Below the pieces are notes generated by a model that was not told the DNA's origin, searched no databases, and saw only the letters and a list, made by a program, of their open reading frames with translations. Positions 4,019 through 15,860 of a stretch of 16,363 bases of DNA are shown here, in pieces. The DNA is from Thermovirgaceae bacterium (GTDB lineage Bacteria; Synergistota; Synergistia; Synergistales; Thermovirgaceae), in the NCBI GenBank assembly GCA_046542505.1, contig JBKHBH010000041.1, forward strand, positions 1-16,363, written 5' to 3'. A program made the translations under genes and the position numbers. Position 1 is the first letter of the stretch, and the number at the start of each line of letters is the position of its first letter.

Positions 4019-4052
4019 ACGTAAAGGTTTTCCTCCAGGGATTCACAGTACA

Positions 4053-4130
4053 GGGTCGGCATTGCGCCGATTGCTGCAAGTTTGGGAGACGGCAAAAATC
4101 AGTAAATCGAAGATCCGACCCCAAAGGTTC
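4053..4130. repeat. REP/REPIN-like element, family A (intact right arm, left arm reduced to GGGTCGG)
   Basis: 4095-4122 AAAATCAGTAAATCGAAGATCCGACCCC is identical to 9498-9525 and is followed by a similar AAAGGTT flank. Confidence 0.85.
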
Positions 4131-4155
4131 AGGGGGTCATGGAAAGGGAGCGCGG

Positions 4156-4857
4156 ATGGGAACAATATCCGTCATTTTCGACAACAACTCCATCGACAGG
4201 AAAATCAGGCCCGCTTGGGGTTTCTCCGCCCTCATCGAGCACGAAAGACGGCAGATGCTTTTTGATACGGGAGGGGATGCGGGAACCCTTCTGCACAATG
4301 CGACGGCCATGGGCGTCGACCTGCACTCCGTCCCCGACGTGTTTCTCTCTCACGCCCACGGGGATCACACGGGAGGCCTTTCGGCCCTCCTGCGTCCGGG
4401 CCTGAAAATCTTCATTCCACGGTCTTTCCCGGCTGGCTTTTTCAGCCACGTTCAAAAAGCCGGCGCCATCCCCGTGGTGGTCTCAGACCCCCTGTGGTGT
4501 TTGGAAGGCTTTCGGTCCACGGGTGAGCTCGGAAGGGGCGTTCTTGAGCAGTCTCTCATCGTCGATGCACCGGGAGGCCCCGTTCTCGTCACTGGATGCG
4601 CCCACCCGGGCATCGTCAATATCACCCAATTCGCCACGCGCCTTGCCGGCCGTCCGCTTTCGCTGGTTCTTGGAGGCTTTCACCTGGGAGGTGCAACGGA
4701 CAGGGAAGTCTACGCTATCGCGAAGGCCCTCAAAGAACTCGGTGTCGAAAAAGTCGCACCCTGCCACTGCACGGGCCGGCCGGCAACGAGGATTTTGCTT
4801 CAATCCTTCGGTGACAATGGGATAGCCGTTTCCGCGGGATCTGTCGTGACGTTTTGA
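4156..4857 (+). CDS. MBL-fold metallo-hydrolase (COG1237-like)
   Basis: Motifs WGFSALIE, LFDTG, SHAHGDHTGGL (HxHxDH), EQSLIV, TGCAHPGIVNI, LGGFHL and APCHCTG; AGGGAG RBS. Confidence 0.92.
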   Translation: MGTISVIFDNNSIDRKIRPAWGFSALIEHERRQMLFDTGGDAGTLLHNATAMGVDLHSVPDVFLSHAHGDHTGGLSALLRPGLKIFIPRSFPAGFFSHVQKAGAIPVVVSDPLWCLEGFRSTGELGRGVLEQSLIVDAPGGPVLVTGCAHPGIVNITQFATRLAGRPLSLVLGGFHLGGATDREVYAIAKALKELGVEKVAPCHCTGRPATRILLQSFGDNGIAVSAGSVVTF

Positions 4858-5103
4858 AACCGCCGGGGCCGGTTTGTAGACAGCAATTTAGCGTAAACAC
4901 CGAGATTTTGGTCAGATCATACCCGCGGTCGCTTCCTGCAAGATCTTTGGGAGCAGGGGTTGTCACGCCCAGAGGCGGGGCCGACAGGAGCAACAGTGCA
5001 AAACCATGGCCGCCGGCTCTCAATTGCATTTCTCCCCCCACGGGGCATGCTTCACATCCAGGCGGCCTTCAGGTATTTTTAGACGAAAACAGGGGGCTTT
5101 CTG

Positions 5104-6201
5104 ATGAAGAAGCTTTTCGACAACGTCGACATCGGCTCCATGACATTGAAAAACCGTTTTGTCCGAAGCGCGACCTGGGAGAGAAAGGCCGACGAAAAGG
5201 GGTACCTGACGAAGGAACTGTCGAAGGTTTACGAAGAGCTGGCCCGGGGCGGCATCGGCATGATCATCACCGGGTACGCTTTCGTGCATCCCGAGGAACA
5301 GCCGAACCCGGGCATGATGGGAATCTGTGACGACTCTTTCATCGACGGTTACCGGCAGTTCACCGGCATGGTTCACGAATCGGGCGGCCGGATCGTCATG
5401 CAGATAGCCTATGGCGGAACCCGAACGGGGTTTTGCCCCGAAAAGAGGGTCATCTGGGGTCCTTCGGCGGTTCCGGAATACAGCACCGGCGTCGTGGCCA
5501 AAGAAATGACCGCCGAGAACATCCATGACCTGGTAAAGGTCTTCGGAGATGCGGCGGACCGGGTGAAAAAGTCCGGTTTCGACGGTGTCCAGCTTCACGG
5601 GGCGCACGGATACCTTTTGGGTCAGTTCCTGAGCCCCTTGCATAACCAAAGAAAAGACAAATACGGTGGGACCCGAGAAAACAGGGCCCGGATCATCCTG
5701 GAGGTCTTCGAGGAAGTCCGCGGAAGGGTCGGGCCCTCCTTTCCGGTCTTGATCAAGATCAATTCGGAAGACTGCGTCCCCGGGGGAGCGACCTTTGAAG
5801 ACTGTCGATATGTCTGCCGGGCCTTGTCAGGAGCGGGAATCGACGCCATAGAAATCAGCGGAGGGATCGGAGCTGCAGGAACCCCCTATTCTTCTCACCG
5901 GCCCGTTTCTTCAGAAAAGGACGAGGCCTATTTTTCCGAAGCCGCGGCGGCGGTGGCCGCAGAGGTGGATACGCCAATCATCCTCGTTGGAGGGCTCCGG
6001 AGCCCCGCGGTCATGCAGAGGCTGCTGGAAATCACGGAGATCGCCTGTTTCGCCTTGTCCAGGCCCTTTCTGGCGGAGCCCCACCTGGTCAAAAGATGGG
6101 AATCCGGCGATTTGACGAAAGCCAGATGCCTCTCCTGCAACCGGTGCAGAACCGATGAGGGAAATTACTGTACCGTTTTCAACGGTCTGGGGATGAAATG
6201 A
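5104..6201 (+). CDS. NADH:flavin oxidoreductase, old yellow enzyme family
   Basis: Motifs LKNRFVRSATWE, ARGGIGMIITG, GFDGVQLHGAHGYLLGQFLSP..N.RKDKYGGTRENRAR and SRPFLAEPHL; C-terminal CLSCNRC..C cluster. Confidence 0.95.
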   Translation: MKKLFDNVDIGSMTLKNRFVRSATWERKADEKGYLTKELSKVYEELARGGIGMIITGYAFVHPEEQPNPGMMGICDDSFIDGYRQFTGMVHESGGRIVMQIAYGGTRTGFCPEKRVIWGPSAVPEYSTGVVAKEMTAENIHDLVKVFGDAADRVKKSGFDGVQLHGAHGYLLGQFLSPLHNQRKDKYGGTRENRARIILEVFEEVRGRVGPSFPVLIKINSEDCVPGGATFEDCRYVCRALSGAGIDAIEISGGIGAAGTPYSSHRPVSSEKDEAYFSEAAAAVAAEVDTPIILVGGLRSPAVMQRLLEITEIACFALSRPFLAEPHLVKRWESGDLTKARCLSCNRCRTDEGNYCTVFNGLGMK

Positions 6202-6238
6202 ACGCAAAGGGCCGGGCGACGGCCGGAAAGGGGAAAGA

Positions 6239-7225
6239 ATGAGACCAGACGAAGGTTTCTACAGCGAACCCGGCGGCGAGAATCCCATGCACGCCCCGAG
6301 GTACTGCGGCATTCCCACCTTTATGAGGACGCCCCATGTCACAAACCCCAACGGGCTCGACATCGCCCTGGTGGGCGTCCCCTACGACGGCGCCGTAGAG
6401 GCCCGGTCGGGCGCACGCCAGGGGCCCCGGCAGATCCGCGACATGTCCAGCATGATGCGCGCCATCCACCACGTCACCCGGGTCAACCCTTACGAACTGT
6501 GCCGTGTGGGTGATATGGGCGACGTTCCTTTCAGCCGGATCTTTGATGTGGAGGCGAGCCACAGGGACATCACGGCCTTTTTCGAAAAAGTGCATCACGC
6601 CGGGGCATCGCCCCTGAGCGCCGGAGGCGATCATTCCATCACCCTCCCGATCCTTCGGGCCATCGCCGGGGAAGGCCCGGTTGGCCTGATCCACATCGAC
6701 GCCCACACGGACTGCTGCGACGAGGAGATGAACTCCAGGTACAGCCACGGTACGCCTTTCCGCCGGGCCGTCGAGGAAGGTCTGGTCGACCCCGGGCGAA
6801 TGATCCAGATCGGGATCAGGGGAGCCGCAAATTCCGACGAATGCTGGACCTTCGGTGAGAGGGAAGGCATCCGGATCGTCTTCATGGAGGAGTTCACCCG
6901 CCTCGGCGTGGACGAAACCGTCGCCGAGACGCGCAGGATCATGGGCGGGGGGCCCGTTTACATCACCTTCGACGTGGACGGCGTCGATCCTGCCTTCACG
7001 CCGGGGACGGGAACCCCCGAGATCGGGGGACTGACGTCACGTGAGGCCCAGGCCCTGGTCCGTGGCTTTCGGGGCCTTGACATCGTGGGGGGCGACGTCG
7101 TGGAGGTGGCTCCGCCCTTTGACCCCTCGGGCAACACCGCACTGGTGGCGGCCACGATCATGTACGAGATCCTGTGCATCCTGGCCGAGTCGAAGGCCTG
7201 CCGAAAAAAGCGTGTTCCGCGGTGA
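6239..7225 (+). CDS. Ureohydrolase (agmatinase / guanidinopropionase-like)
   Basis: Motifs GARQGP, GGDHS, HIDAHTD, HGTPFRRA, FDVDGVDPAFTPGTGTPEIGG and DVVEVAPPFD; the binuclear Mn ligands are present. Confidence 0.93.
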   Translation: MRPDEGFYSEPGGENPMHAPRYCGIPTFMRTPHVTNPNGLDIALVGVPYDGAVEARSGARQGPRQIRDMSSMMRAIHHVTRVNPYELCRVGDMGDVPFSRIFDVEASHRDITAFFEKVHHAGASPLSAGGDHSITLPILRAIAGEGPVGLIHIDAHTDCCDEEMNSRYSHGTPFRRAVEEGLVDPGRMIQIGIRGAANSDECWTFGEREGIRIVFMEEFTRLGVDETVAETRRIMGGGPVYITFDVDGVDPAFTPGTGTPEIGGLTSREAQALVRGFRGLDIVGGDVVEVAPPFDPSGNTALVAATIMYEILCILAESKACRKKRVPR

Positions 7226-7261
7226 TCGCCCTGAAAGGGATGACTCGACGCGGCAGAAGGG

Positions 7262-7270
7262 TGATATGAT
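7262..7270 (+). promoter_or_regulatory. Extended -10 element (TGnTATGAT) for the DUF6922-AbiEii pair
   Basis: TGATATGAT upstream of an AAGGAG RBS (7279-7284) and GTG at 7294. Confidence 0.45.
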
Positions 7271-7293
7271 TGAGCCGGAAGGAGCGGGAGTCC

Positions 7294-7590
7294 GTGAAGA
7301 CAGGGAAAACGCCGATACCCGAAAAGCTGCGCCCCCTTTTCTGGGACGTGGATCAATCAAAGCTCGACCTGGTCCGGCACAGGGCTTTCATCATCGAGCG
7401 GGTCCTCAACATGGGAGACCAGCAGGCCCTTGCCTGGCTTCGGATCATCGTTTCCGACGAAGAGATTCTCCAGGTCGTCAAAAACAGTCGCCGCCTGACC
7501 AGAAAAGCGGCGCTGTGCTGGAAAAATATCTATCACCTCGACGAGGATGAGATGCGATGTTTTGGGACGTCCTCGATCCGGCAAGACTGA
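7294..7590 (+). CDS. DUF6922-like protein, putative type IV antitoxin partner (GTG 7294 preferred over TTG 7270)
   Basis: LRPLFWDVDQSKLDL..HRAFIIERVLNMGD signature; overlaps the downstream nucleotidyltransferase gene. Confidence 0.8.
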   Translation: MKTGKTPIPEKLRPLFWDVDQSKLDLVRHRAFIIERVLNMGDQQALAWLRIIVSDEEILQVVKNSRRLTRKAALCWKNIYHLDEDEMRCFGTSSIRQD

Positions 7591-8195
7591 AACTGCTCGA
7601 AAAACTCGCCTGCGCATCTCCCGTCGGGCTGTCCTACCTCGCCGGGGGAACGGCTCTGGCGCTCCTTCTGGGGCACAGAGAGTCGGTGGATTTCGACTGG
7701 TTCACCCCTGAGCCCTTCGACCCCGAAATCCTGTCCAGGCGCATGGGACGGTTCGGCGAGGTCTCCGTGGCCGAAACCGCCCCGGGGACCTTCATCGGGT
7801 GGATCGGCGACACCCAGGTCACCTGGCTTCATTATCCCAACCCCGTCCTGGAACCTTTCACAGAACCCCCAGACGTTCCTGGACTGCGAATCGCCTCCCT
7901 GACGGACATGGCAATCATGAAGTGGACCGCCCTCGCCAACCGAGGCTCCATCAAGGACTTCATCGACCTGTTCGTTCTTGATCAGCAGGGCATCACCCTG
8001 AAAGACCTTTTCCCGCTTCTTGAAAAAAAGTATCCCGATGCCCGCATCAATACCTACCATATGGTAAAAAGCCTCTCCTGGTTCGATGACGCCGAAAACG
8101 AACCCTGGCCGGTGCTCAGGATGCCCCTCGAATGGGAAAACATCGAGAGCCGCTTTCTTGAAATCCAGCGGGAGCTCTTCCCCCTCCTGGGCTAG
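7557..8195 (+). CDS. Nucleotidyltransferase of the AbiEii/AbiGii toxin family (type IV TA)
   Basis: Motifs YLAGGTALALLLGHRESVDFDWF, IASLTDMAIMK..A...RGSIKDFIDL and KSLSWFDDAE. Confidence 0.9.
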   Translation: MFWDVLDPARLKLLEKLACASPVGLSYLAGGTALALLLGHRESVDFDWFTPEPFDPEILSRRMGRFGEVSVAETAPGTFIGWIGDTQVTWLHYPNPVLEPFTEPPDVPGLRIASLTDMAIMKWTALANRGSIKDFIDLFVLDQQGITLKDLFPLLEKKYPDARINTYHMVKSLSWFDDAENEPWPVLRMPLEWENIESRFLEIQRELFPLLG

Positions 8196-8196
8196 C

Positions 8197-8257
8197 GAAA
8201 CAACCGGGGGTCGGATCTTCGATTTACGGATTTTTCTGCCGACCCCAAGGGGTTTTC
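8197..8257. repeat. REP-like element, family A short form (61 bp); hairpin between convergent genes, may double as a terminator
   Basis: GAAACAACC-G-[GGGGTCGGATCTTCGATTTACGGATTTT]-TCTGCCGACCCCAAGGGGTTTTC; 54/61 identical to 10930-10990. Confidence 0.9.
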
Positions 8258-8283
8258 GCGAGATTCGGGAAGATGCTCTTCAG

Positions 8284-8682
8284 TTAAAGATATTTCTCCA
8301 GGAACTGGGCGGGAGTTATGACATCCGGTTTTTCGATTTCAATTGAACCGAAATCCTTGTCCCCGGTAATAAGAACGTCGACACCTTCTATAATTGCTGT
8401 ATACAGAACCGGGTAATCTTTCTTGTCACGGATGAAGAAAAGCGAATAGTCCATTTCCTCGGGTGTGTAAACAAAATCGTAACTCATCTTGGTCAGAAGA
8501 CTATCAATGGCTTTTTCTTTCGTCGGAAATTTCCGTTGTACAACCGCCTTCAGCTCGTCTACAACGAAAGACGAGAGAACGAGTTCGTGCTTCCTGAAGA
8601 TATATTCCATCATAGTGTTCATTTTTTCACTTGGAAACAAAAACATGGATACGAGCACATTGGTGTCGAGCATCACCCTCAT
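8284..8682 (-). CDS. PIN-domain toxin (VapC-like)
   Basis: MRVMLDTNVLVS..ELK..IRDKKDYPVLYTAI..VDVLITGDKDF contains the PIN acidic residues. Confidence 0.92.
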   Translation of the reverse strand: MRVMLDTNVLVSMFLFPSEKMNTMMEYIFRKHELVLSSFVVDELKAVVQRKFPTKEKAIDSLLTKMSYDFVYTPEEMDYSLFFIRDKKDYPVLYTAIIEGVDVLITGDKDFGSIEIEKPDVITPAQFLEKYL

Positions 8683-8685
8683 GGT

Positions 8686-8943
8686 TTACTTTCCCGTTCT
8701 CTCGCGACGCAATTCTTTCATCATGGAAACAACATCATCTTCGTCTTTAAGCCCGGCACGTGCAGCCTCTCCGGTAAAAGCAGCCTGCGCCTCCCTGAGG
8801 GCCTCCATTGAAGAGTTGAGGATATAGATCTTCCCGTCATCTTCGACAAAAAGAATTTTGTCACCTTTTTTGACGCCCAGCTTTCTACGGACATCGACCG
8901 GAATGGTTATCTGTCCTTTTGAAGTGATCTTTGCAAGTTCCAT
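8686..8943 (-). CDS. AbrB/MazE/SpoVT-family antitoxin (85 aa, start ATG 8943)
   Basis: MELAKITSKGQITIPVDVRRKLGVKKGDKILF; GAGGTG RBS; stop 3 bp before the PIN gene start. Confidence 0.92.
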   Translation of the reverse strand: MELAKITSKGQITIPVDVRRKLGVKKGDKILFVEDDGKIYILNSSMEALREAQAAFTGEAARAGLKDEDDVVSMMKELRRERTGK

Positions 8944-8972
8944 TTGTTGCCACCTCTTTTGGGAAATGAATA

Positions 8973-9021
8973 CCTTACATTCCTTACATAAAAAGATACA
9001 TAAAAACCACCAAAATATCAA
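8973..9021 (-). promoter_or_regulatory. Promoter and candidate autoregulatory operator of the AbrB-PIN pair
   Basis: Minus strand TTGATA (9021-9016), 17 bp spacer, TATCTT (8998-8993); tandem CCTTACAT repeats at 8973-8980 and 8982-8989 near the start site. Confidence 0.55.
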
Positions 9022-9239
9022 GAACGGTCAATTCCTGTGTGTTTTGGACGCGTTGAAGGTCCGCCGGGGAAAGAGTGCTAGAAGACCGGGGAAAACCCTT
9101 TTTGTGACTTTTCCGAACTGCACGTGACTGCTTCTCGGTTTCTTCAGCCTTTGTATAGTTTAAAGGCTCCTTCGGGTCGCCTTGTTTTTGAGGTGTTCGA
9201 GGTGTGCCGTCGGATCATGCCATCAGGCGGTCGTTGCAG

Positions 9240-9428
9240 GGCCTTCGGGAGCAGGGGATCGTCCCCATTCAATCCCGGCATTCGACATTCCATTGCAGCC
9301 AACGGAACAGGTCGTTTCTGTCTGCCTCACGTATGGCAAGAGCGAGCGCCATCTCAAAAAAATCTTCGTCGCTTGCCGTTATCGTGCAATTGTTGTTTTC
9401 CAGGAAGATGTTACCTGAATCATCTCGT
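9240..9428 (-). pseudogene. Possible degraded response-regulator receiver-domain remnant
   Basis: Two minus frames give DDSGNIFLENNNCTITASDEDFFEMALALAIRE and RQKRPVPLAAMECRMPGLNGDD, which loosely match the REC consensus. It needs a frameshift and has no proper start. Confidence 0.25.
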
Positions 9429-9534
9429 GAAACAACCGGGGGTCGGATCTTCGATTTACTGATTTTCAAATCGCAGGTTGCTCATGTGGTCGGCAGAAAA
9501 ATCAGTAAATCGAAGATCCGACCCCAAGGGTTTT
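9429..9534. repeat. Complete REPIN-like element, family A: two perfect 28-bp inverted arms around a 31-bp spacer
   Basis: 9439-9466 GGGGTCGGATCTTCGATTTACTGATTTT with its exact reverse complement at 9498-9525; flanks GAAACAACC and AAGGGTTTT. Confidence 0.95.
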
Positions 9535-9601
9535 GGTCGCCAAGGGAGGATCAGGCTTTCTCGGCCTGCCTGAATCACCCAGGACATCAAAAAGACGAAA
9601 T

Positions 9602-10078
9602 CTACTCGACTATCTCCAGTCCGAGTTGTTCCTCGTCGTAGTTTTTCGCGTTGTTGTCCTTTACTGTGGCTACAACTGTATACTCCCCGGCAGGAATGCC
9701 CTTCAGGTTCAGGTCAACGGTGAAGTACAGGTCGTTGATCTTGCTCTTGAAATTGTCATTGCCGAAGTTGACCATGTTTTTCTCATTGATCAGGGCTTTG
9801 CCTGAAGAATCCAAAAGTGCGAAATCCAGGGCCACATCTACAGAGTAAGTTCCGTTGCTCTCGACCCTCCTGAAATTGTCGAGTTCAAGATAAACCACCG
9901 TCTGGCTGTCCTCCTTGAATGTGCTGGAGGGCTCCTCCTCGTAGAGCCCGAAGGTGGTGACCTCTTGCGCAAAGAGGATCTTTTGGATCTCGATAGATTC
10001 CTGTGCGAAAAGGGCAGGCGCCAGCATGAAAACCAAAAGGCAAGACACCGCCAGGGTCGTGATACGTCGCATCTTCAT
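9602..10078 (-). CDS. Secreted hypothetical protein (158 aa), probably a beta-sandwich
   Basis: AAGGAG RBS before ATG 10078; signal peptide MKMRRITTLAVSCLLVFMLAPALFA; alternating beta-strand pattern ending IPAGEYTVVATVKD. Confidence 0.8.
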   Translation of the reverse strand: MKMRRITTLAVSCLLVFMLAPALFAQESIEIQKILFAQEVTTFGLYEEEPSSTFKEDSQTVVYLELDNFRRVESNGTYSVDVALDFALLDSSGKALINEKNMVNFGNDNFKSKINDLYFTVDLNLKGIPAGEYTVVATVKDNNAKNYDEEQLGLEIVE

Positions 10079-10142
10079 GGACTTTCTCTCCTTTTTCCGC
10101 AAGGACGGGTTCAATCTGGAGCAATGAACTGTCAGACAAGAA

Positions 10143-10183
10143 TGGAACCTGCACCTTATTTTAGAAGTCAGGTGCAGGTTCCA
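10143..10183. terminator. Perfect 14-bp-stem hairpin between the two secreted-protein genes (terminator or another REP-like palindrome)
   Basis: TGGAACCTGCACCT-N13-AGGTGCAGGTTCCA, 8 bp after the stop at 10192; only a short T tract (TTCTT) follows on the minus strand. Confidence 0.6.
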
Positions 10184-10191
10184 CTTGATCG

Positions 10192-10704
10192 CTATCTTGT
10201 TACACTGTCTGCAATCTCCTCAACGGGTATTTCTTCGCCAAGGGAAATCAGATCATTCTCGTTTACGTCCTGGTTTGTTTCAATTGCTGCGACCACATCA
10301 TTTTGCACGGCGATCCCCAAGGTGCCACCTGGCTGATCCTTTCGGATTTGGAAAAACGCCTCCCTGCCGGAAATTTCCGTAGATTTTAAGATTGCTTCCT
10401 CGGTTTCCACTTCCATCAGTGACAATTCCCGGAACTTCTGGACTTGCGGGGCCGTGTCACCTGCAACGACCATGAGGCGGATTCTTTTGGCCCCATCAGA
10501 GTATTTTTGTTCAACAGCAGCGTATGTTTGGCCCGAGTTTTCTAAATTACCTCCATCGGGATCATCTGATTTCTCCATTCCACCAATACTGTCGGGGAGG
10601 ACCGGGATCATGTCCTCGTAATCGTATTCCGCTGCAACTGCAACAGAAGCCGCCAGCATGACACACAAGGCTACTAAGAAAATGAAAATATTTCTGATTC
10701 GCAT
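10192..10704 (-). CDS. Secreted hypothetical protein (170 aa)
   Basis: GGAGGTG RBS before ATG 10704; signal peptide MRIRNIFIFLVALCVMLAASVAVA; acidic mature region. Confidence 0.8.
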   Translation of the reverse strand: MRIRNIFIFLVALCVMLAASVAVAAEYDYEDMIPVLPDSIGGMEKSDDPDGGNLENSGQTYAAVEQKYSDGAKRIRLMVVAGDTAPQVQKFRELSLMEVETEEAILKSTEISGREAFFQIRKDQPGGTLGIAVQNDVVAAIETNQDVNENDLISLGEEIPVEEIADSVTR

Positions 10705-10821
10705 TACATGCACCTCCAAAAATTTTTTGGGCCTGGAAATTTCGTTTCGGGAAAGTTGTTTCGGAAAGTCTGGACAATCGAAACCAGTGAAGCAGGGAGG
10801 ATAAACACTGTCTTTTCCCGG

Positions 10822-10849
10822 AAAGTACCATACCAACGACTTTTGTCAA
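10822..10849 (-). promoter_or_regulatory. Sigma70-type promoter for the 10704 gene
   Basis: Minus strand TTGACA (10849-10844), 16 bp spacer ending TGG, TACTTT (10827-10822). Confidence 0.5.
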
Positions 10850-10929
10850 ATTTCGCGATATGAGTCAAGGCGAAATCGAGTCTGGTAATGGTTTCCCTTC
10901 GCTTGCCAGCTACGCCGGACATCCCCAGC

Positions 10930-10990
10930 AAAACAACCCGGGGTCGGATCTTCGATTTACTGATTTTCCTGCTGACCCTTAGGGGTTTTC
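10930..10990. repeat. REP-like element, family A short form (61 bp)
   Basis: Perfect 28-bp arm at 10940-10967, followed by CCTGCTGACCCTTAGGGGTTTTC. Confidence 0.9.
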
Positions 10991-11018
10991 AGAAATCGGG
11001 CTCTTCTCGTTTACTGGT

Positions 11019-11375
11019 TCAATCGAGATCGAAGAGGATTTTCAAAGCCTGCCCTATTCGCGAAAGGGTTTCTTCGTCGACACGGCCCCTCGTTTTGACG
11101 AACCGGGCCCTCTGATCGACAGGCCTGGTTTGGAGACAATCGGCAACGGATTTTTTTGTCAAGCCGTTTTGGGCGTCAGGGATGATTTCGACATTCGTGA
11201 TAATTCTGGATTTCCGCTCGCTCCATCCCGTGATCGGTACCACCTGAATCACAGGGCTTCTCTTGTTATATTCATCGTTGGTGACGACAATGCATGGGCG
11301 CTGTTTGCCCGTTTCAGACCCTTCCGTCGGATCCAGACGGACGTCGATGAGCATCCCCCGTTCCAGGGCGTTCAT
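11019..11375 (-). CDS. mazF: PemK/MazF-family endoribonuclease toxin (118 aa, start ATG 11375)
   Basis: ERGMLIDVRLDPTEGSETGKQRPCIVVTNDEYN..IQVVPIT..NGLTKKSVADCLQTRPVD; ATGA overlap with the upstream antitoxin. Confidence 0.93.
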   Translation of the reverse strand: MNALERGMLIDVRLDPTEGSETGKQRPCIVVTNDEYNKRSPVIQVVPITGWSERKSRIITNVEIIPDAQNGLTKKSVADCLQTRPVDQRARFVKTRGRVDEETLSRIGQALKILFDLD

Positions 11376-11605
11376 GAAGGCCACTCCGCAAGGTCTGCAT
11401 TCGTCCATTCTCGTGTTTCCCGGTCTTCTTCGTAGACTTCCTCATACAAGGCCGCCGATTCCCGAAGGCGCTGTCTGGTGAGATCCTCGGCAAGCCGGTC
11501 AAGGGCGGTTCTCACGACTTCGCTCTTGTCCTTGAAACCATAGGACCGATATTCTTGAAGAAAAAGGAGGTTTGATTCCTTGAGACTGAATTTGGCCTGG
11601 TGCAT
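11372..11605 (-). CDS. Ribbon-helix-helix (CopG-like) antitoxin (77 aa, start ATG 11605)
   Basis: MHQAKFSL..YGFKDKSEVVRTALDRL with an acidic C-terminus; AGGGAGGG RBS; coupled to mazF. Confidence 0.82.
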   Translation of the reverse strand: MHQAKFSLKESNLLFLQEYRSYGFKDKSEVVRTALDRLAEDLTRQRLRESAALYEEVYEEDRETREWTNADLAEWPS

Positions 11606-11651
11606 TAGGTTCCCTCCCTTGAAAATTTCGAAAGTCCATTTCCAGGGCCCT

Positions 11652-11679
11652 ATTTTAGGTGTTAATTTCAGGGTGTCAA
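11652..11679 (-). promoter_or_regulatory. Promoter of the RHH-mazF pair
   Basis: Minus strand TTGACA (11679-11674), 16 bp spacer, TAAAAT (11657-11652); imperfect direct repeat ACACCCTGAAAT/ACACCTAAAAT inside it as a candidate operator. Confidence 0.65.
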
Positions 11680-11704
11680 TATTGGCACCTTCAGGAAAAC
11701 CGGT

Positions 11705-11799
11705 TGGGGTCAAGTCTTTACTTTTAGGGTTTTTGCCACCTGACTGGACGCGCATCGGGCTGTTCCGATCAAAACACAAAAAGTAAAGACTTGACCCCA
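11705..11799. repeat. Complete REPIN-like element, family B
   Basis: Perfect 21-bp inverted arms TGGGGTCAAGTCTTTACTTTT (11705-11725) and 11779-11799, extendable with mismatches to about 30 bp; left flank GAAAACC. Confidence 0.9.
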
Positions 11800-11820
11800 C
11801 AGGCTCATGAGTCAGAAGTA

Positions 11821-11838
11821 TGATATATTATGTATATC
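11821..11838 (+). promoter_or_regulatory. Extended -10 element and palindromic operator of mazEF
   Basis: TGaTATATT (11821-11829) overlapping GATATA-N5-TATATC (11822-11838); GAGGAGG RBS follows. Confidence 0.55.
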
Positions 11839-11856
11839 TAAGAGGAGGGGAGAACA

Positions 11857-12102
11857 ATGGCTCACAGTGTCCGGTTGGCGCGCTGGGGAAACAGCATAGG
11901 CGTTCGCTTGCCAAAACACGTGGTGGAGGTCTTGAACCTCAAGCCCGGAGGCTTTCTCAAAGTCTCTTTGGGCAAGGACAACTCAATAGTCCTGAATCCG
12001 GAAAGAAAATATCACCTGGAAGACCTGGTCTCGCGGATTACCGAGGACAATTGTCCTGGCGAATTCGACTGGGGCCCCGATGTCGGAAGGGAACAGCAAT
12101 GA
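11857..12102 (+). CDS. mazE: MazE (AbrB-fold) antitoxin
   Basis: ARWGNSIGVRLPK..YHLEDLVSRITEDN..EFDWGPDVGRE, typical of MazE. Confidence 0.93.
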   Translation: MAHSVRLARWGNSIGVRLPKHVVEVLNLKPGGFLKVSLGKDNSIVLNPERKYHLEDLVSRITEDNCPGEFDWGPDVGREQQ

Positions 12103-12449
12103 GTGAATGGGCTCCGGACCGGGGCGACATCATACGCGTCGATTTGAAACCCGTCAAAGGGCACGAACACGGAGGGAGAACCCGCCCTGTTCTGGTTCTC
12201 TCTCCTTATGAATACAATGTCCGCACAAACCTGTGCATCACGGTTCCCTTCACAACAAAGCAAAAAGGCTATCCCTTTGAAGTGGAGACGGGCACCTTCC
12301 CCATGAAAACCCGCGGTGTCATTCTGGCCGATGCTGTCCGAAGCATCGAATGGAAAACCCGAAACGCCCGGTTTATCGAGAAGGCCGACAAGGCCTTCGT
12401 CGATGATGTTCTCCTGAAGCTGGCCACCCTGCTGGCGACTGATCGTTGA
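12099..12449 (+). CDS. mazF: MazF endoribonuclease toxin (116 aa, start ATG 12099)
   Basis: WAPDRGDIIRVDLKPVKGHEHGGRTRPVLVLSPYEYN..VPFTTKQKGYPFEV..GVILADAVRSIEWKTR; ATGA overlap with mazE. Confidence 0.93.
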   Translation: MSEWAPDRGDIIRVDLKPVKGHEHGGRTRPVLVLSPYEYNVRTNLCITVPFTTKQKGYPFEVETGTFPMKTRGVILADAVRSIEWKTRNARFIEKADKAFVDDVLLKLATLLATDR

Positions 12450-12451
12450 AT

Positions 12452-12490
12452 GAAAACCACGGGTTCAGACGTTACATTTGACATTGACAA
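12452..12490. repeat. Single diverged REP-like arm, family C
   Basis: GAAAACCAC-GGGTTC-AGA-CGTT-ACA-TTT-GACATTGACA has the same left flank and block spacing as families A and B; it starts 2 bp after the mazF stop. Confidence 0.5.
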
Positions 12491-12761
12491 AACAGCCCTC
12501 CCCACCGGACGTCGCAGGGCTCTCTTGTGAGCTTTCGGCACTTTACAGTATGGATTCCCCGAACATGAGAACCTCGCTTTTCATGATTTGCCGTCAGAAG
12601 CTGAAAGTGGACGAAGGGCCATTAACCATGACCCCGGGCGGCAATGTGTGTAAACTTATACATCAGTGATTGTCATGGCAATGACGGGGCGGTGTCCATC
12701 GGGACCGATTTTGAGCAGGGCACCGAAAGGCCGCGAAAAAATGGGGAGTTGAATCGGCTGG

Positions 12762-15700
12762 ATGATCTGTCTTCACGTGTCACTGCTCGACGGGGCCCCG
12801 TACCTGTGGTCCGAACTGGCAGGCGTCGAAGCCCCGAAGGAGGGGACGACCGGCCTTTCAGGGGACCCCCTTTGGTACCCCTACGATCCCGGCGGTGCCT
12901 GCCTGCAAAAAGCCATAAAACCCGTTCTTCCCGGGTTTAGGGTCAACAAGCAAAACACCCTGCCCGTCACCTTGTGGCTTCCCTCAAGGGGCAGCCGGCC
13001 CGTGCGGTCCTACCTCAGGTATGACGACGAGGTGGATCGAAGGTACAAGGTCCGCATCGCGCCCTGGCGGACGATGGCGAGACCCCTTGATATGGAAGAA
13101 CTGGTCGGGCTTTGTTCCATCGCCGAAGCACAAAACGGGCGGGGCGAAAAGCTTGTCCCGGGCTCTTCCCTTTCATGGATCGGCGCTGTATGGACCTGTG
13201 CCCTTGATATCGTTATGGGCGAAAACTTCCTGCCCGGGGTGTCCGAGGGAGAAAAGGGGCAGGAAGCGCGCTGGATTCCCATGCCGGACAACGAGCAGGA
13301 AGCCGAAATCAGGAAACTCGGCGATTCCATGCCCGGCATTTGCCGCTGCCTGACCGTTGCAGGCGAAGAACCTCCCCTTTATTCCCCCCTTGAAACGGCC
13401 AAAAACCTCGTGGCACGCATGACGGACCACCTTGTCCGCGAATCCGCGGGACATGCAAAAGATCAATGGCCAGGAGAGGGAGAAAAAGGTTTCTCGAGCA
13501 TTCACGATGCCTGGATACATGCCCTCACTTCCCAAAACCCCGTTATCGAAGGTCCTGACGCCGCAGTGGCCGAATTCAAAAACCAGGTCGACCAGTGGCA
13601 GAGAAAGCTGGTCCTGGTGCGCCGGTCTCCTTTCCAGTTCTGCCTTCGCCTTCACGAGCCCGACACAGAAGCGCCGAAAGAAAAGGAGCCCCTCTGGAAA
13701 GTGGAGTACCTTGTCCGGCCCAAAGTCGACCCGACGCTTCAGGTTCCCGTGTCCCAACTATGGGACCCAAAAAGCCCGGGCAGCCGCGAGCTTGAAAAAT
13801 ACGGCTCCGATGTCCGGGAATATCTTTATACCGTGCTCGGCCAAGCAGCGAGAATCTGCCCGCCCATCGCCGAAAGCCTTGAAAGCAAGGCCCCCGGCGG
13901 TTTTCATGCCGACAACGGGGAGATCCTTGAATTTCTCAATGAAAGCGCCGGTAAGCTTGCACAGGCCGGTTTCACCCTCATGCTTCCCTCCTGGTGGATC
14001 AACAAGACACCGGGCCAAAAACCCCGGGTCAAGGTAAAGGTAAAGACGAATCCGGGTGAAAGCCCCGGGGGATTTTCCCTGGATTCTTTATTTCAGTTCA
14101 ATTACAGGTTTTGTTACGAGGGCACGGAACTCTCGCTCGAGGAACTGGAAGAACTGGCCCGGCTCAAGTCCCCTCTTGTCCGGCTCAGGGGGCAGTGGAC
14201 CAATATCAGCGAGGAGGGCATCAAAGCGGCGATAGATTTTCTGCGCAGGCAGAAAGAGGGCACTCTCTCGGGCAGGGAAATCCTGAAAATGAGCCTGGGT
14301 GAAGAGGGCGAGGCCGGGGGCTTCCCCATAGAGGACATCGAAACCGAAGGTTGGCTCAAAAAGGTGCTTGACAAGCTCAAAAAGAGCGTAAAACTCGAGG
14401 TAAAGAACCCGCCCGAAGGGTTCAATGGTGAGCTTCGTCCCTATCAACGGCGGGGATACTCGTGGCTCGACTTTTTGCAGGAGACGGGGCTGGGAGCGTG
14501 CCTTGCCGACGATATGGGACTTGGGAAAACCATTCAGACCCTTGCCCTCATCCAGAAGAAAAGGGAAGAAGGAGAAAACCGGCCCTTCCTCCTTATATGC
14601 CCCACATCGGTCGTGAACAACTGGAGGATGGAAGCCGAAAAATTCACCCCCCGCCTCGACGTGCTGGTTCATCACGGATCGGACAGAAAAAAGCAGGAGC
14701 GCTTCCAAAAGGAGGCGGCCAGGTATGCCATGGTCCTTTCCAGCTATGGCCTCATAACGAGGGATATTGACTTTCTCAGGGAAGTTCCCTGGGCCGGGAT
14801 AGTGCTCGACGAGGCGCAAAACATACGGAACCACGAAACCAAAAGAGCCAGGGCGTGCCGTGCCGTCCCGGCAGGCTGCCGCATAGCCCTGACGGGCACC
14901 CCGGTCGAAAACCACGTGGGCGACCTGTGGTCCATAATGGACTTCCTCAATCCGGGATTGCTCGGAAACTATTCATACTTCCGGGCCAACTTCCACAGGC
15001 CCATCCAGGTGTGGAAGAATGAGGAAGCCGCCACGAGGCTCAGGAAAATCACCGCACCGTTCATTCTCAGGCGCCTCAAGACGGACAGGTCCGTCATTAC
15101 GGACCTGCCCGAAAAAATCGAGACCAGGGAATACTGCAACCTCACCCGGGAGCAGGTCTCCCTCTACAAGGCCGTCCTCGACGAGGTGGAAGAAAAGATC
15201 GAAAGCTCCGAAGGCATGGAAAGAAAAGGGCTGATCCTCTCCACCCTCACCCGGCTGAAACAGATCTGCAACCACCCCGCCCAGTACGCGAAGGACGAAA
15301 ACCCCGTCCCGGTGCGATCAGGCAAACAGAGCCGCCTTTTCGAAATGCTTCGTGAAATCCGGGAAGGGGGCGAAAGGTCTCTTGTCTTTACCCAGTACGC
15401 GGAAATGGGCCGGATACTTCAGCAAAGCCTTGTGGAGGAATTCATGGAAGACGTCTTCTTCATTTGCGGGGCCACCCCCAGAAAAAGACGCGACGAAATG
15501 GTGAGAATTTTCCAGGAAGACCAGGACGCCCCGCATGTATTCGTCCTCTCTCTCAAGGCGGGTGGGACGGGCCTCAACCTCAGCAGGGCCAACCACGTCT
15601 TCCACTATGACAGGTGGTGGAACCCCGCCGTCGAAAACCAGGCCACCGACAGGGCGTTCAGGATCGGGCAGAAAAAGAACGTGCTGGTTCACAAATTCGT

Positions 15701-15860
15701 TGTCGTCGGCACTCTGGAGGAGAGGATAGACAGGATGATCGAAAGCAAGAGTGAGATAGCCGAACAGGTCCTCGGCAAGGGTGAAGCAGGCCTCACAGAA
15801 CTTTCGAACGAAGAGATAAAGAACCTGATCAAACTTGGCAAGGAAGCCGCGGGAGACTGA
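12762..15860 (+). CDS. SNF2-family (superfamily II) helicase/ATPase, 1032 aa, YwqA-like
   Basis: Motifs [67 protein letters not shown] and [21 protein letters not shown]. Confidence 0.96.
   Translation: [1032 protein letters not shown]

Follow-up and report, generated by a model that had tools for sequence, protein, structure and literature searches.

REPIN-like hairpin repeats, and a Y1 transposase gene bracketed by the same arms, in a Thermovirgaceae genome with a mosaic toxin-antitoxin island

The window analyzed here is an entire 16,363-bp contig (JBKHBH010000041.1, C92 in our numbering) of the draft genome of a Thermovirgaceae bacterium, labelled G000 (2.14 Mb in 142 contigs, 93.5% complete), in which hairpin elements with arms beginning GGGGTC lie between short toxin-antitoxin (TA) operons. 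We found inverted copies of the same arm on both sides of a Y1 transposase gene on another contig, a concentration of arms in small variable regions of related genomes, and a mosaic island in which the differences between relatives mostly end at element edges. The hairpins are very probably TIRYT-type REPIN-like repeats that the Y1 transposase would serve in trans. To the fuller proposal, that such repeats accumulate near the transposase in a permissive mosaic island, where they mark and perhaps assist the joints, we give a probability of roughly 0.6. There is no generally accepted mechanism for the movement of chromosomal TA modules, and the host role of domesticated transposases of the RAYT/TIRYT type and of their repeats is an open question, which the present case links to TA movement.

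Results

The hairpin arms bracket a Y1 transposase gene

The repeats are built on a 28-nt arm (family A, reference copy at window positions 9439-9466), which we observed five times in the window, at 4095(-), 8207(+), 9439(+), 9498(-) and 10940(+), with 0-1 mismatches, against zero copies expected from 200 shuffles; the repeats described in a first-pass annotation of this DNA are thus real. A second family, B, is present as an inverted pair (11705-11733 and 11771-11799). When up to 7 mismatches were allowed, the search of G000 gave arms on 11 contigs in total, 23 of them from family A (9 contigs) and 7 from family B (5 contigs); this assembly is fragmented, and repeats break assemblies.

The first-pass annotation had proposed a search for a Y1 HUH transposase beside the repeat. 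A single Y1_Tnp (PF01797) match was obtained in G000, at C28:1295-1621 (Pfam E 6.8e-10, above the cut-off), and the corresponding gene (811-1654) is flanked by inverted copies of the arm, with family-A arms at 782(+) and 2025(-) that span 1.27 kb. Reading of the translation identified an HYH motif (NHYHLL) and a tyrosine motif, YVVLNPV (RYVVLNPV), which we take to be the catalytic motifs. A sequence search of the PDB with the transposase returned a weak helix-turn-helix (HTH)-like match to a designed repeat protein, and no solved RAYT structure was found by it.

The orthologue in G004, a complete genome of the same genus, is a single-copy gene for a protein of 280 amino acids with 72% amino-acid identity to that of G000. 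Arms of a third family, C, were observed on both sides of the transposase genes of G004 and G003, and the transposase genes of G035 and G015 are bracketed by GGGGTCAG-type inverted repeats. Between the two genomes of the genus that were compared in full, the arm family tracks the transposase: family A is found at the gene and is dominant in G000, while family C is found at the gene and is dominant in G004, which has one transposase and 25 arms, about 22 of them of family C. Family C and the left arm beside the transposase gene of G000 both begin with GGGGTCAG, which fits the consensus GGGGWSAS, and the starts of family A (GGGGTCGG) and family B (GGGGTCAA) are each one position off it.

In G015, for which the arm pattern gave 0 matches, there are two Y1 transposase genes, one of them at a distance of 2.5 kb from an AbrB-PIN homologue (C1:409,008-409,334 and 411,896-412,609). 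The degenerate arm pattern also gave exact matches in metagenome-assembled genomes labelled Acidobacteriota/Thermoanaerobaculia (L051, L052, L055, L060, L062 and L063), among them one inverted pair 60 nt apart; the available part of Di Nocera et al. 2013 (PMC3733652) counts Acidobacteria as one of the phyla in which a TIRYT group is well defined.

Hairpin elements in the window

The elements and remnants of the window are as follows.

4053-4132, minus strand: family-A singlet, with a complete arm at 4095-4122 (-) and, some 43 nt further in, the short partner GGGTCGG.
4856-4872, plus strand: possible truncated element end, weakly indicated, made of a flank plus GGGGCCGG, directly past the stop of a gene for a metallo-beta-lactamase (MBL)-fold protein.
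8197-8257, plus strand: family-A short form, made of a flank, the 28-nt arm, CCGACCCC and a flank; fold z -2.25.
9209-9423, plus strand: non-coding remnant, ending 5 nt before the next element.
9429-9537, no strand assigned: full family-A REPIN-like element, with two perfect 28-nt inverted arms (100% complementary) and a 31-nt spacer.
10930-10990, plus strand: family-A short form, 29 nt beyond the MazF stop (11019); fold z -0.67.
11696-11808, no strand assigned: full family-B REPIN-like element, between two divergent MazF operons; fold z -6.8.
12452-12640, no strand assigned: degenerate element remnant as read by eye, with a flank and a decayed arm start on the left and ...ATGACCCC on the right.

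The description of these elements as hairpins holds strongly for the two full ones, of which 9429-9537 folds at -34.4 kcal/mol (z -9.4), and only weakly for the short forms and the singlet (4045-4135, z -1.1). The element reported at 12452 proved to be a mere remnant with no fold (12450-12520, z +0.85), though relatives hold full elements at this site. The distances to the toxin stops were as first described (8195 to 8197; 8257 to 8284, 27 nt; 10990 to 11019, 29 nt; 12449 to 12452), and an element or remnant lies within 30 nt of the stop in 4/4 toxin genes of the window. The first short form starts 2 nt past the AbiEii stop and ends 27 nt short of the PIN stop, occupying 61 nt of the 88-nt gap between the two genes.

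The claim that all family-A copies point the same way was not sustained, as the singlet at 4095 runs opposite to both short forms (8197 and 10930). Co-orientation can be demonstrated for these two short forms only, the second being a direct repeat of 8194-8257 (89% over 64 nt). The left GAAACAACC and right AAGGGTTTT flanks are one GAAAAC-type motif that lies outside both arms; the flanks are therefore the two ends of a palindromic element and not a mark of orientation.

The singlet is placed between the GSDH and MBL-fold genes. The possible truncated end at 4856-4872 matches the flank and arm start of a copy on C134 at 15 of 16 nt (by reading), and no counterpart was found at the same site in the relative G001. 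The remnant at 9209-9423 is 94% identical to G004 2,132,656-2,132,829 and also matches G001 and G005, with other gene neighbours there. We suspected it to be the 3' end of an ERCC4-like gene that stands beside elements in G001 and on C27; the frame tried gave no protein similarity, and tblastn found only the C27 copy in G000. A 49-nt direct repeat (4911-4959 and 9209-9257, 71% identical) stands each time beside an element or possible element end, and is related to the sequence between the element and the SNF2 gene in G001 and G005. An Rfam scan of the window at gathering thresholds gave no family.

Copies are confined to small regions

We then considered where the copies lie. In G004, 23 of the 25 arms fall within 2,049,901-2,177,164 (127 kb) of a genome of 2,203,405 bp, an interval that includes the transposase at 2,167,472. 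Clustering was also observed in G035 (20/21 arms on the transposase contig, 14/21 in 19 kb) and in G026 (16/18 arms in 39 kb), and 8 of the 11 arm-bearing contigs of G000 map to one 223-kb stretch of G004. Binomial tails for this clustering are tiny but overstated, the arms being paired and the intervals chosen after seeing the data. An even spread over intergenic regions, which the first-pass annotation had named as an argument against its proposal, was thus not seen: arms are confined to small variable regions in G004, G026 and G035. A link to the origin of replication was considered and rejected, with G004 arms at 26-153 kb upstream and 48 kb downstream of dnaA and the G026 array about 0.88 Mb away.

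The repeats are not specific to TA genes. Outside the window, G000 has 12 family-A and 4 family-B elements, and a flanking open reading frame (ORF) with a TA family was observed in 0/16. Their neighbours are GntR/FCD regulators, a TRAP transporter, creatininase, HisD, methyltransferases, peptidases, a sigma-70 factor, an iron repressor, SIMPL and AOR, and several flanking ORFs have no Pfam match. Most G004 arms are placed likewise: around its non-island arms, the Pfam matches of 33 ORFs are mostly metabolic or transport proteins (SHMT, TRAP transporter genes, HisD and alkaline phosphatase among them), with one Fic protein. In G000, ORFs outside the window were taken by a greedy longest-ORF script, and 86 of 120 were scanned with Pfam; gene calls are crude, and the relatives are few and mutually related.

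TA genes are few in G000. The window holds 2/2 PemK, 2/2 MazE-type and 1/2 PIN matches, and adjacency to TA genes is therefore effectively a single locus in this genome. A tblastn search with 13 proteins of relatives, 11 of them TA components, found only the window PIN, one HicA-like fragment and one weak Rpn-like match. In other genera, arms were found within about 2 kb at 0/6 loci with homologues of AbiE (4 loci) or RHH-MazF (2 loci), while arm-like matches (5-8 mismatches of 28) lie within about 450 nt of AbrB-PIN homologues at 4/6 loci.

The TA region of the window is a mosaic island

The genes between and beside the elements are listed below.

7270-8195, plus strand: AbiE-type pair, DUF6922 (7270-7590) and AbiEii nucleotidyltransferase toxin (7557-8195); Pfam E 1.2e-15 and 2.5e-13.
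8284-8943, minus strand: TA operon of an AbrB/MazE-type antitoxin (8686-8943) followed by a PIN toxin (8284-8682); Pfam MazE_antitoxin 3e-12 and PIN_3 1.5e-12.
9602-10114, minus strand: ORF with a signal-peptide-like N-terminus on reading the translation; no family in Pfam or NCBIfam.
10192-10836, minus strand: ORF with a signal-peptide-like segment, start probably near 10704; no family in Pfam or NCBIfam.
11019-11608, minus strand: TA operon of a small upstream ORF (11372-11608) followed by a PemK/MazF toxin (11019-11408; PemK 1.5e-23).
11857-12449, plus strand: MazE-MazF operon, MazE at 11857-12102 and PemK/MazF at 12099-12449; Pfam 5e-10 and 1.1e-21.
12762-15860, plus strand: SNF2/DUF3670 helicase gene (Pfam), the right boundary of the island.

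Most of the gene order given by the first-pass annotation is backed by Pfam, as DUF6922 with AbiEii, PIN with a MazE/AbrB-type antitoxin, two ORFs without a match, PemK/MazF, MazE with PemK/MazF, and SNF2. The part that lacks such backing is the ribbon-helix-helix (RHH) antitoxin: the ORF at 11372-11608 has no Pfam or NCBIfam match and is RHH-like by reading only. The PIN and AbrB-type pair also matches NCBIfam TIGR00305 and TIGR01439, and the two genes described as secreted do show signal-peptide-like N-termini in their translations. The minus strand carries all 6 ORFs between 8257 and 11705, as stated before, and the cargo is AT-richer, with a GC content of 44-52% over 8100-12300 against 57-66% in the flanks and 55% in the genome. 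A promoter-like site was located at 11679-11652, upstream of the TA operon at 11019-11608.

The backbones of G000 and G004 are 72-78% identical (for example 74.6% over 7.2 kb around mnmG, and 76.7% over 14.7 kb). In the island, the AbiE pair with its A short form (7251-8259) is 96.8% identical, RHH-MazF 86.7%, MazE-MazF (11792-12455) 97.4% and SNF2 90.2%, and these four block identities differ (chi-square P about 8e-20). With an island at 87-97% in a backbone at 72-78%, and blocks of unequal identity, the sequence comparison indicates that the island is a horizontally exchanged mosaic, in which the identity steps fall at elements.

Modules were gained, lost or reordered in relatives and in metagenome contigs, and the ends lie mostly at element edges. 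G004 does not have window 8260-11207: a truncated MazF gene is joined directly to the right end of its A short form, so that one end of the deletion is at an element and the other, at 11208, is inside the MazF gene, which departs from the expectation that breakpoints fall in elements. G004 differs further: its B site is down to a relic of 30 nt, the second MazF gene (MazF2) is followed by a family-C element, and family-C elements lie upstream of AbiE; its family-A element, of a family foreign to this genome, is attached to the 97%-identical AbiE block. In G001, the MBL-fold gene abuts MazF with no element between them, window 4863-10991 is missing, the sequences align again from the right edge of the 10930-10990 element onward, there is no B element, and a family-A element follows MazF2.

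Element content therefore varies at the B site and in the MazF2-SNF2 gap while gene order is kept. The latter gap holds family C in G004 and in metagenome run X10, family A in G001 and a remnant in the window. Conservation of gene order without the repeats, which had been named as a point against the first-pass proposal, was thus observed in part: the adjacency of RHH-MazF and MazE-MazF survives without a B element in G001, and with a mere 30-nt B relic in G004 and two metagenomes. This relic (window 11691-11792; G004 L024, about 16087-16057; X4 and X10) ends ...AAACAACGGGGGGT/G, then GACCCCACAGG, with only the outermost arm bases left, and is either an excision scar or an internal deletion. 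The relic sequence ...GGGGGGT GACCCC... hinted at a cut within the end motif, but as a general excision footprint it was rejected, since GGGGTGACCCC occurs 0 times in G000. In G005 (L029 and L030), an agmatinase gene stands where the window has the OYE gene, with a family-B element immediately upstream of it, and family-A arms bracket the GSDH gene; relative to the window, the one on the 4095 side is inverted.

Island forms in metagenomes

Twenty-two runs other than the source contain 0.19-0.32 of the sampled words of 7200-12700. Contigs of four runs were aligned to the window at 90% likeness or more, and only the covered parts were interpreted; these contigs may come from several related organisms and show which forms exist, not their frequency. 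The joint from 8247 to 11208 seen in G004 was also observed in X10, and the B-site relic in X4 and X10. In X4, X8 and X10, from three separate studies, 10927 is joined to 11819 with 48 other letters between them, a form in which the skipped stretch is precisely that of the A short form, MazF-RHH and the B element. Most of the 10192-10836 ORF is missing in contigs of the same three runs. X4 contains a form that skips 9036-9437 and ends exactly at the outer end of arm 9439; X8 and X10 match from 8255 rightwards, with unrelated sequence before; and X10 has a family-C element after 12455.

Arm arrays with TA modules in another family of the order

Dense arm arrays with many TA modules were found in G026 and G035, from another family of the order. 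The array genes include HicA/HicB, DUF2281, YafQ-RelB, MNT-HEPN, PIN-Phd and YhgA/Rpn-like nuclease genes, and one pair of a PIN gene and an ORF without Pfam match has 68% DNA identity to the AbrB-PIN pair of the window. Between these modules stand an FAD-oxidase/Etf operon, a copper ATPase with HMA and ArsR, and a TRAP transporter operon. In the G026 array, 6/6 of the 'GGGGTCAC'-type arms are on one strand; by analogy, the strand-specific insertion of this class of Y1 enzyme could give such a bias. This array (C3:1,936,591-1,975,263) is orphan-like, with no Y1_Tnp match in the genome.

A 660-bp unit made of an arm, HicA-HicB and a full element is common to G026 and G035 with 90.8% identity. 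Its homology ends 1-5 nt from the outer ends of the arms, the flanks are unrelated, and the unit lies on opposite sides of a neighbouring Rpn-like gene in the two genomes. YhgA/Rpn-like (Transposase_31) genes and DUF4351 fragments are scattered in the arrays (G026 L078 1805-2758, 11224-11646 and 13090-13620; G035 L080 17074-18084); they presumably encode recombination-promoting nucleases and could contribute to shuffling.

Larger elements and insertion-sequence-like copies

Elements of about 270-400 nt bounded by family-A arms were observed in G000 (C134 10523-10798 and 9181-9585; C117 2304-2571). They have inner sequence in common, which is partly related to the end of an insertion sequence (IS), and they are a larger class with the same ends, like miniature inverted-repeat transposable elements (MITEs). 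In G004, three IS-like copies at about 2,081,640, 2,152,250 and 2,171,480 (L036, L039 and L040) each abut a family-C arm, which they cut at an identical position (..AAAGATCTGA, then ACATTCC..), and the IS-like sequence looks to insert into the arm end. A fragment of the same IS end lies at C134 9250-9440 of G000, within an element bounded by A arms.

Discussion

We propose that the GGGGTC hairpins are non-autonomous TIRtron repeats on which the RAYT-like Y1 HUH transposase (TIRYT) encoded on the other contig would act in trans. By analogy with IS200/IS605 and REP/RAYT enzymes, this transposase would recognize folded single-stranded hairpin ends and would cut and rejoin single-stranded DNA at replication forks, so that copies would land near the donor and near the transposase gene. 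The copies would persist in the AT-richer exchanged stretch, where short operons, four TA pairs among them, would offer many dispensable intergenic gaps; elements occupy nearly every gap of the island, those directly 3' of each toxin as well as those upstream of antitoxin promoters. Modules would come and go at these element-filled gaps, with the elements as marks of the joints, and the elements probably help to make the joints by shared homology, hairpin-stalled replication or transposase nicks. What the sequences show is the identity of the repeats, their link to the transposase gene, their regional confinement, the mosaic nature of the island and the breakpoints at element edges; single-strand transposition, local hopping and any causal role in module exchange are inferred. 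The simpler alternative mentioned by the first-pass annotation, that REPINs just insert into intergenic gaps, was right about the identity of the elements, but does not alone explain their confinement to the island or the edge-to-edge differences.

Several observations weigh against this proposal. The C28 protein scores 74 bits on the NCBIfam model REP_Tyr_transpos, below the equivalog cut-off of 80, and its C-terminal HTH_23 match (E 5.5e-4, 20.1 bits) is below the Pfam cut-off of 24.6. The transposase ORF of G000 (C28, L002, 308-1654, minus strand) has no stop where the proteins of G004 and G003 end (280 amino acids), and runs through the left arm and the antisense of a neighbouring transporter gene to 448 amino acids; this transposase may be impaired or C-terminally altered. 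G026 carries 18 arms and no Y1_Tnp match in a 99%-complete genome, so that any present mobility there cannot be due to a transposase of its own. The HicAB unit of G026 and G035 resembles moving arm-bounded cargo more than passive gap filling. Finally, several of the differences between modules end at element edges at 8247/8255, 9438, 10927, 10991 and 12455.

The last two points lead to a possible but rather unlikely alternative, in which the Y1 transposase would excise and reinsert arm-bounded DNA, whole TA operons included, as a single-stranded circle. The island would then have been built module by module, with the arms as capture or exchange sites, and modules would cross species with the arm attached. 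An active role of this kind is suggested by the transposase gene, which is itself 1.27 kb of cargo between inverted arms, and by the existence of the 270-400-nt elements with the same arms as ends. Three TA units (8197-9537 and 10930-11808 of the window, and HicAB in G026) are built alike: one arm stands just past the toxin stop, the TA operon comes next, and a full element lies upstream of the antitoxin. The change of side of the HicAB unit with homology ending at the arm ends, the 10927-to-11819 form of X4, X8 and X10, which lacks exactly the stretch from the A short form to the B element, the unequal identities to G004 of the element-bounded blocks, and the foreign family-A element that travelled with the AbiE block in G004 point in the same direction. 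Against it, elements fill most short gaps, so that geometry alone must bring module ends close to them, as for a passive role. One deletion end lies within the MazF gene (11208), some metagenome contigs with PIN-AbrB have no arm in the 30 nt of upstream flank (a loose end at 8255), the AbiE and RHH-MazF homologues of other genera have no arm nearby, and the G026 array has no transposase. Moreover, homologous recombination between dispersed arms would give the same pattern, and neither a circle nor a precise arm-to-arm joint with the cargo removed was seen in the genomes and contigs compared. If true, this alternative would give gene cassettes a new way to move, a counterpart of integron exchange that works on single strands and is guided by hairpins, and which would build and reshuffle TA and accessory islands by pasting each module beside another arm.

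It is improbable that the hairpins are instead kept for regulation, as terminators, insulators or mRNA stabilizers of packed and partly convergent TA operons. REP sequences (repetitive extragenic palindromes) are reported to affect termination and mRNA stability in the available part of PMC3733652. Here, the GAAAAC/GTTTTC flanks give a T-run past the stem on either strand, and each of the four toxin genes of the window has an element or remnant close to its stop. A terminator scan did not flag the elements, but it covered loops of 3-8 nt only and is not decisive. The short forms fold weakly (z -0.67 to -2.25), G001 keeps the operons without an element, and the link to the transposase and the regional confinement would be left unexplained.

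Integron-like or Xer/dif-module-like site-specific recombination, which the gene-plus-palindrome layout, the richness in TA genes and four tyrosine-recombinase matches in G000 might bring to mind, is highly improbable, since the best integron-integrase match has 60 bits against a cut-off of 265, the recombinase contigs (C24, C43, C21 and C58) hold no arm, no pair of half-sites with dyad symmetry about a short spacer can be read in the arm, the modules run in both directions with promoters of their own, and the arms flank a Y1 transposase gene instead.

Comparison with known systems

Chromosomal super-integrons consist of short gene modules separated by palindromic sites and contain many TA pairs; an integron is recognized by an IntI-type integrase beside the array, by attC sites with a conserved core and by co-oriented cassettes that have no promoter. 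Unlike in these systems, the arms are, by reading, 28-nt inverted repeats with GAAAAC-type flanks and no attC core sites, and they also stand beside housekeeping genes. The model for the integron integrase (TIGR02249) matched four stretches of G000, all below the cut-off and on the arm-free contigs C43 and C24, and none of the four tyrosine-recombinase matches is on an arm-bearing contig. The integron-analogous system imagined in the first-pass annotation is therefore not supported by any of the defining features tested: no IntI integrase was found, modules lie on both strands in their own orientations with at least one promoter-like site (11679-11652), and the G000 elements outside the window have non-TA genes or ORFs without a Pfam match as neighbours.

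A dif module site is 28 bp long, with two 11-nt half-sites in dyad symmetry and a 6-nt spacer, and by reading the arm has no internal dyad. Acinetobacter plasmids carry dif modules, in which a gene module that turns up in different contexts, in some cases a TA pair, lies between two small non-coding repeats. Composite units made of MITE pairs, the Tn3-derived TIMEs in the available part of PMC4133298, are also alike in that two small non-coding repeats bracket a gene module. Unlike in TIMEs and dif modules, the enzyme here is a Y1 HUH protein and not a Tn3 transposase (PMC4133298, available part) or XerC/D, and target-site duplications are not expected and none were seen. For a composite unit, in which the same cargo between two repeat copies would recur in unrelated contexts, there is one clean case, HicAB of G026 and G035, and the 10927-to-11819 form of three runs is suggestive, with homologous recombination from arm to arm as a possible other cause.

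Enzymes of the IS200/IS605 family can carry whatever lies between two ends, and their insertion is strand-specific and coupled to replication. The present system shares with this family (IS608, ISDra2; PMC6006769, available part) a Y1 HUH enzyme and hairpin ends, and differs from it by a single-copy transposase gene that is not multiplied with the ends and by ends that are near-perfect inverted repeats.

The REPIN-RAYT systems of Pseudomonas and Enterobacteria, as presented in the available part of Bertels and Rainey 2011 (PMC3116915), also have two inverted repeats that form a hairpin element, and a repeat-flanked single-copy transposase that seems vertically inherited, each with its own repeat family. 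In contrast to those systems as described in that part, the copies here number tens and not hundreds and are clustered and not genome-wide. The arms begin with GGGGTC, with no GTAG tag by reading; given this and the score below the RAYT cut-off, we class the system with the TIRYTs, as a relative of that type, rather than with the classical RAYTs.

The closest likeness is to TIRtron/TIRYT elements, which are described in the available part of Di Nocera et al. 2013 (PMC3733652) as inverted repeats with the consensus GGGGWSAS, occurring as singles, dimers or clusters. A C-terminal HTH (HTH_23, HTH_28 or Bac_DnaA_C) is given for the corresponding TnpA-REP subclass 2.1 in the available part of Quentin et al. 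2018 (PMC6006769). A full-text search of the literature found no TA modules bounded by TIRYT repeats; few entries mention TIRYT, and the supplementary lists of PMC3733652 and PMC6006769 might hold related proteins. As in TIRtron/TIRYT, we observed a RAYT-like Y1 HUH protein of about 280 amino acids (its C-terminal HTH-like match being below the cut-off), a single-copy transposase gene flanked by inverted repeats that start with GGGGTCAG or GGGGTCGG, near GGGGWSAS, and moderately abundant repeats as singles, dimers and clusters. Three features depart from the available description: the hosts are Thermovirgaceae (Synergistota), the repeats are confined to one variable region and not dispersed, and they punctuate a TA island and bound TA-carrying units. 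Even on a conservative view, it is new for TIRYT-type elements that they extend to Synergistota, that their repeats are strongly regional and not genome-wide, and that these repeats mark recombination joints.

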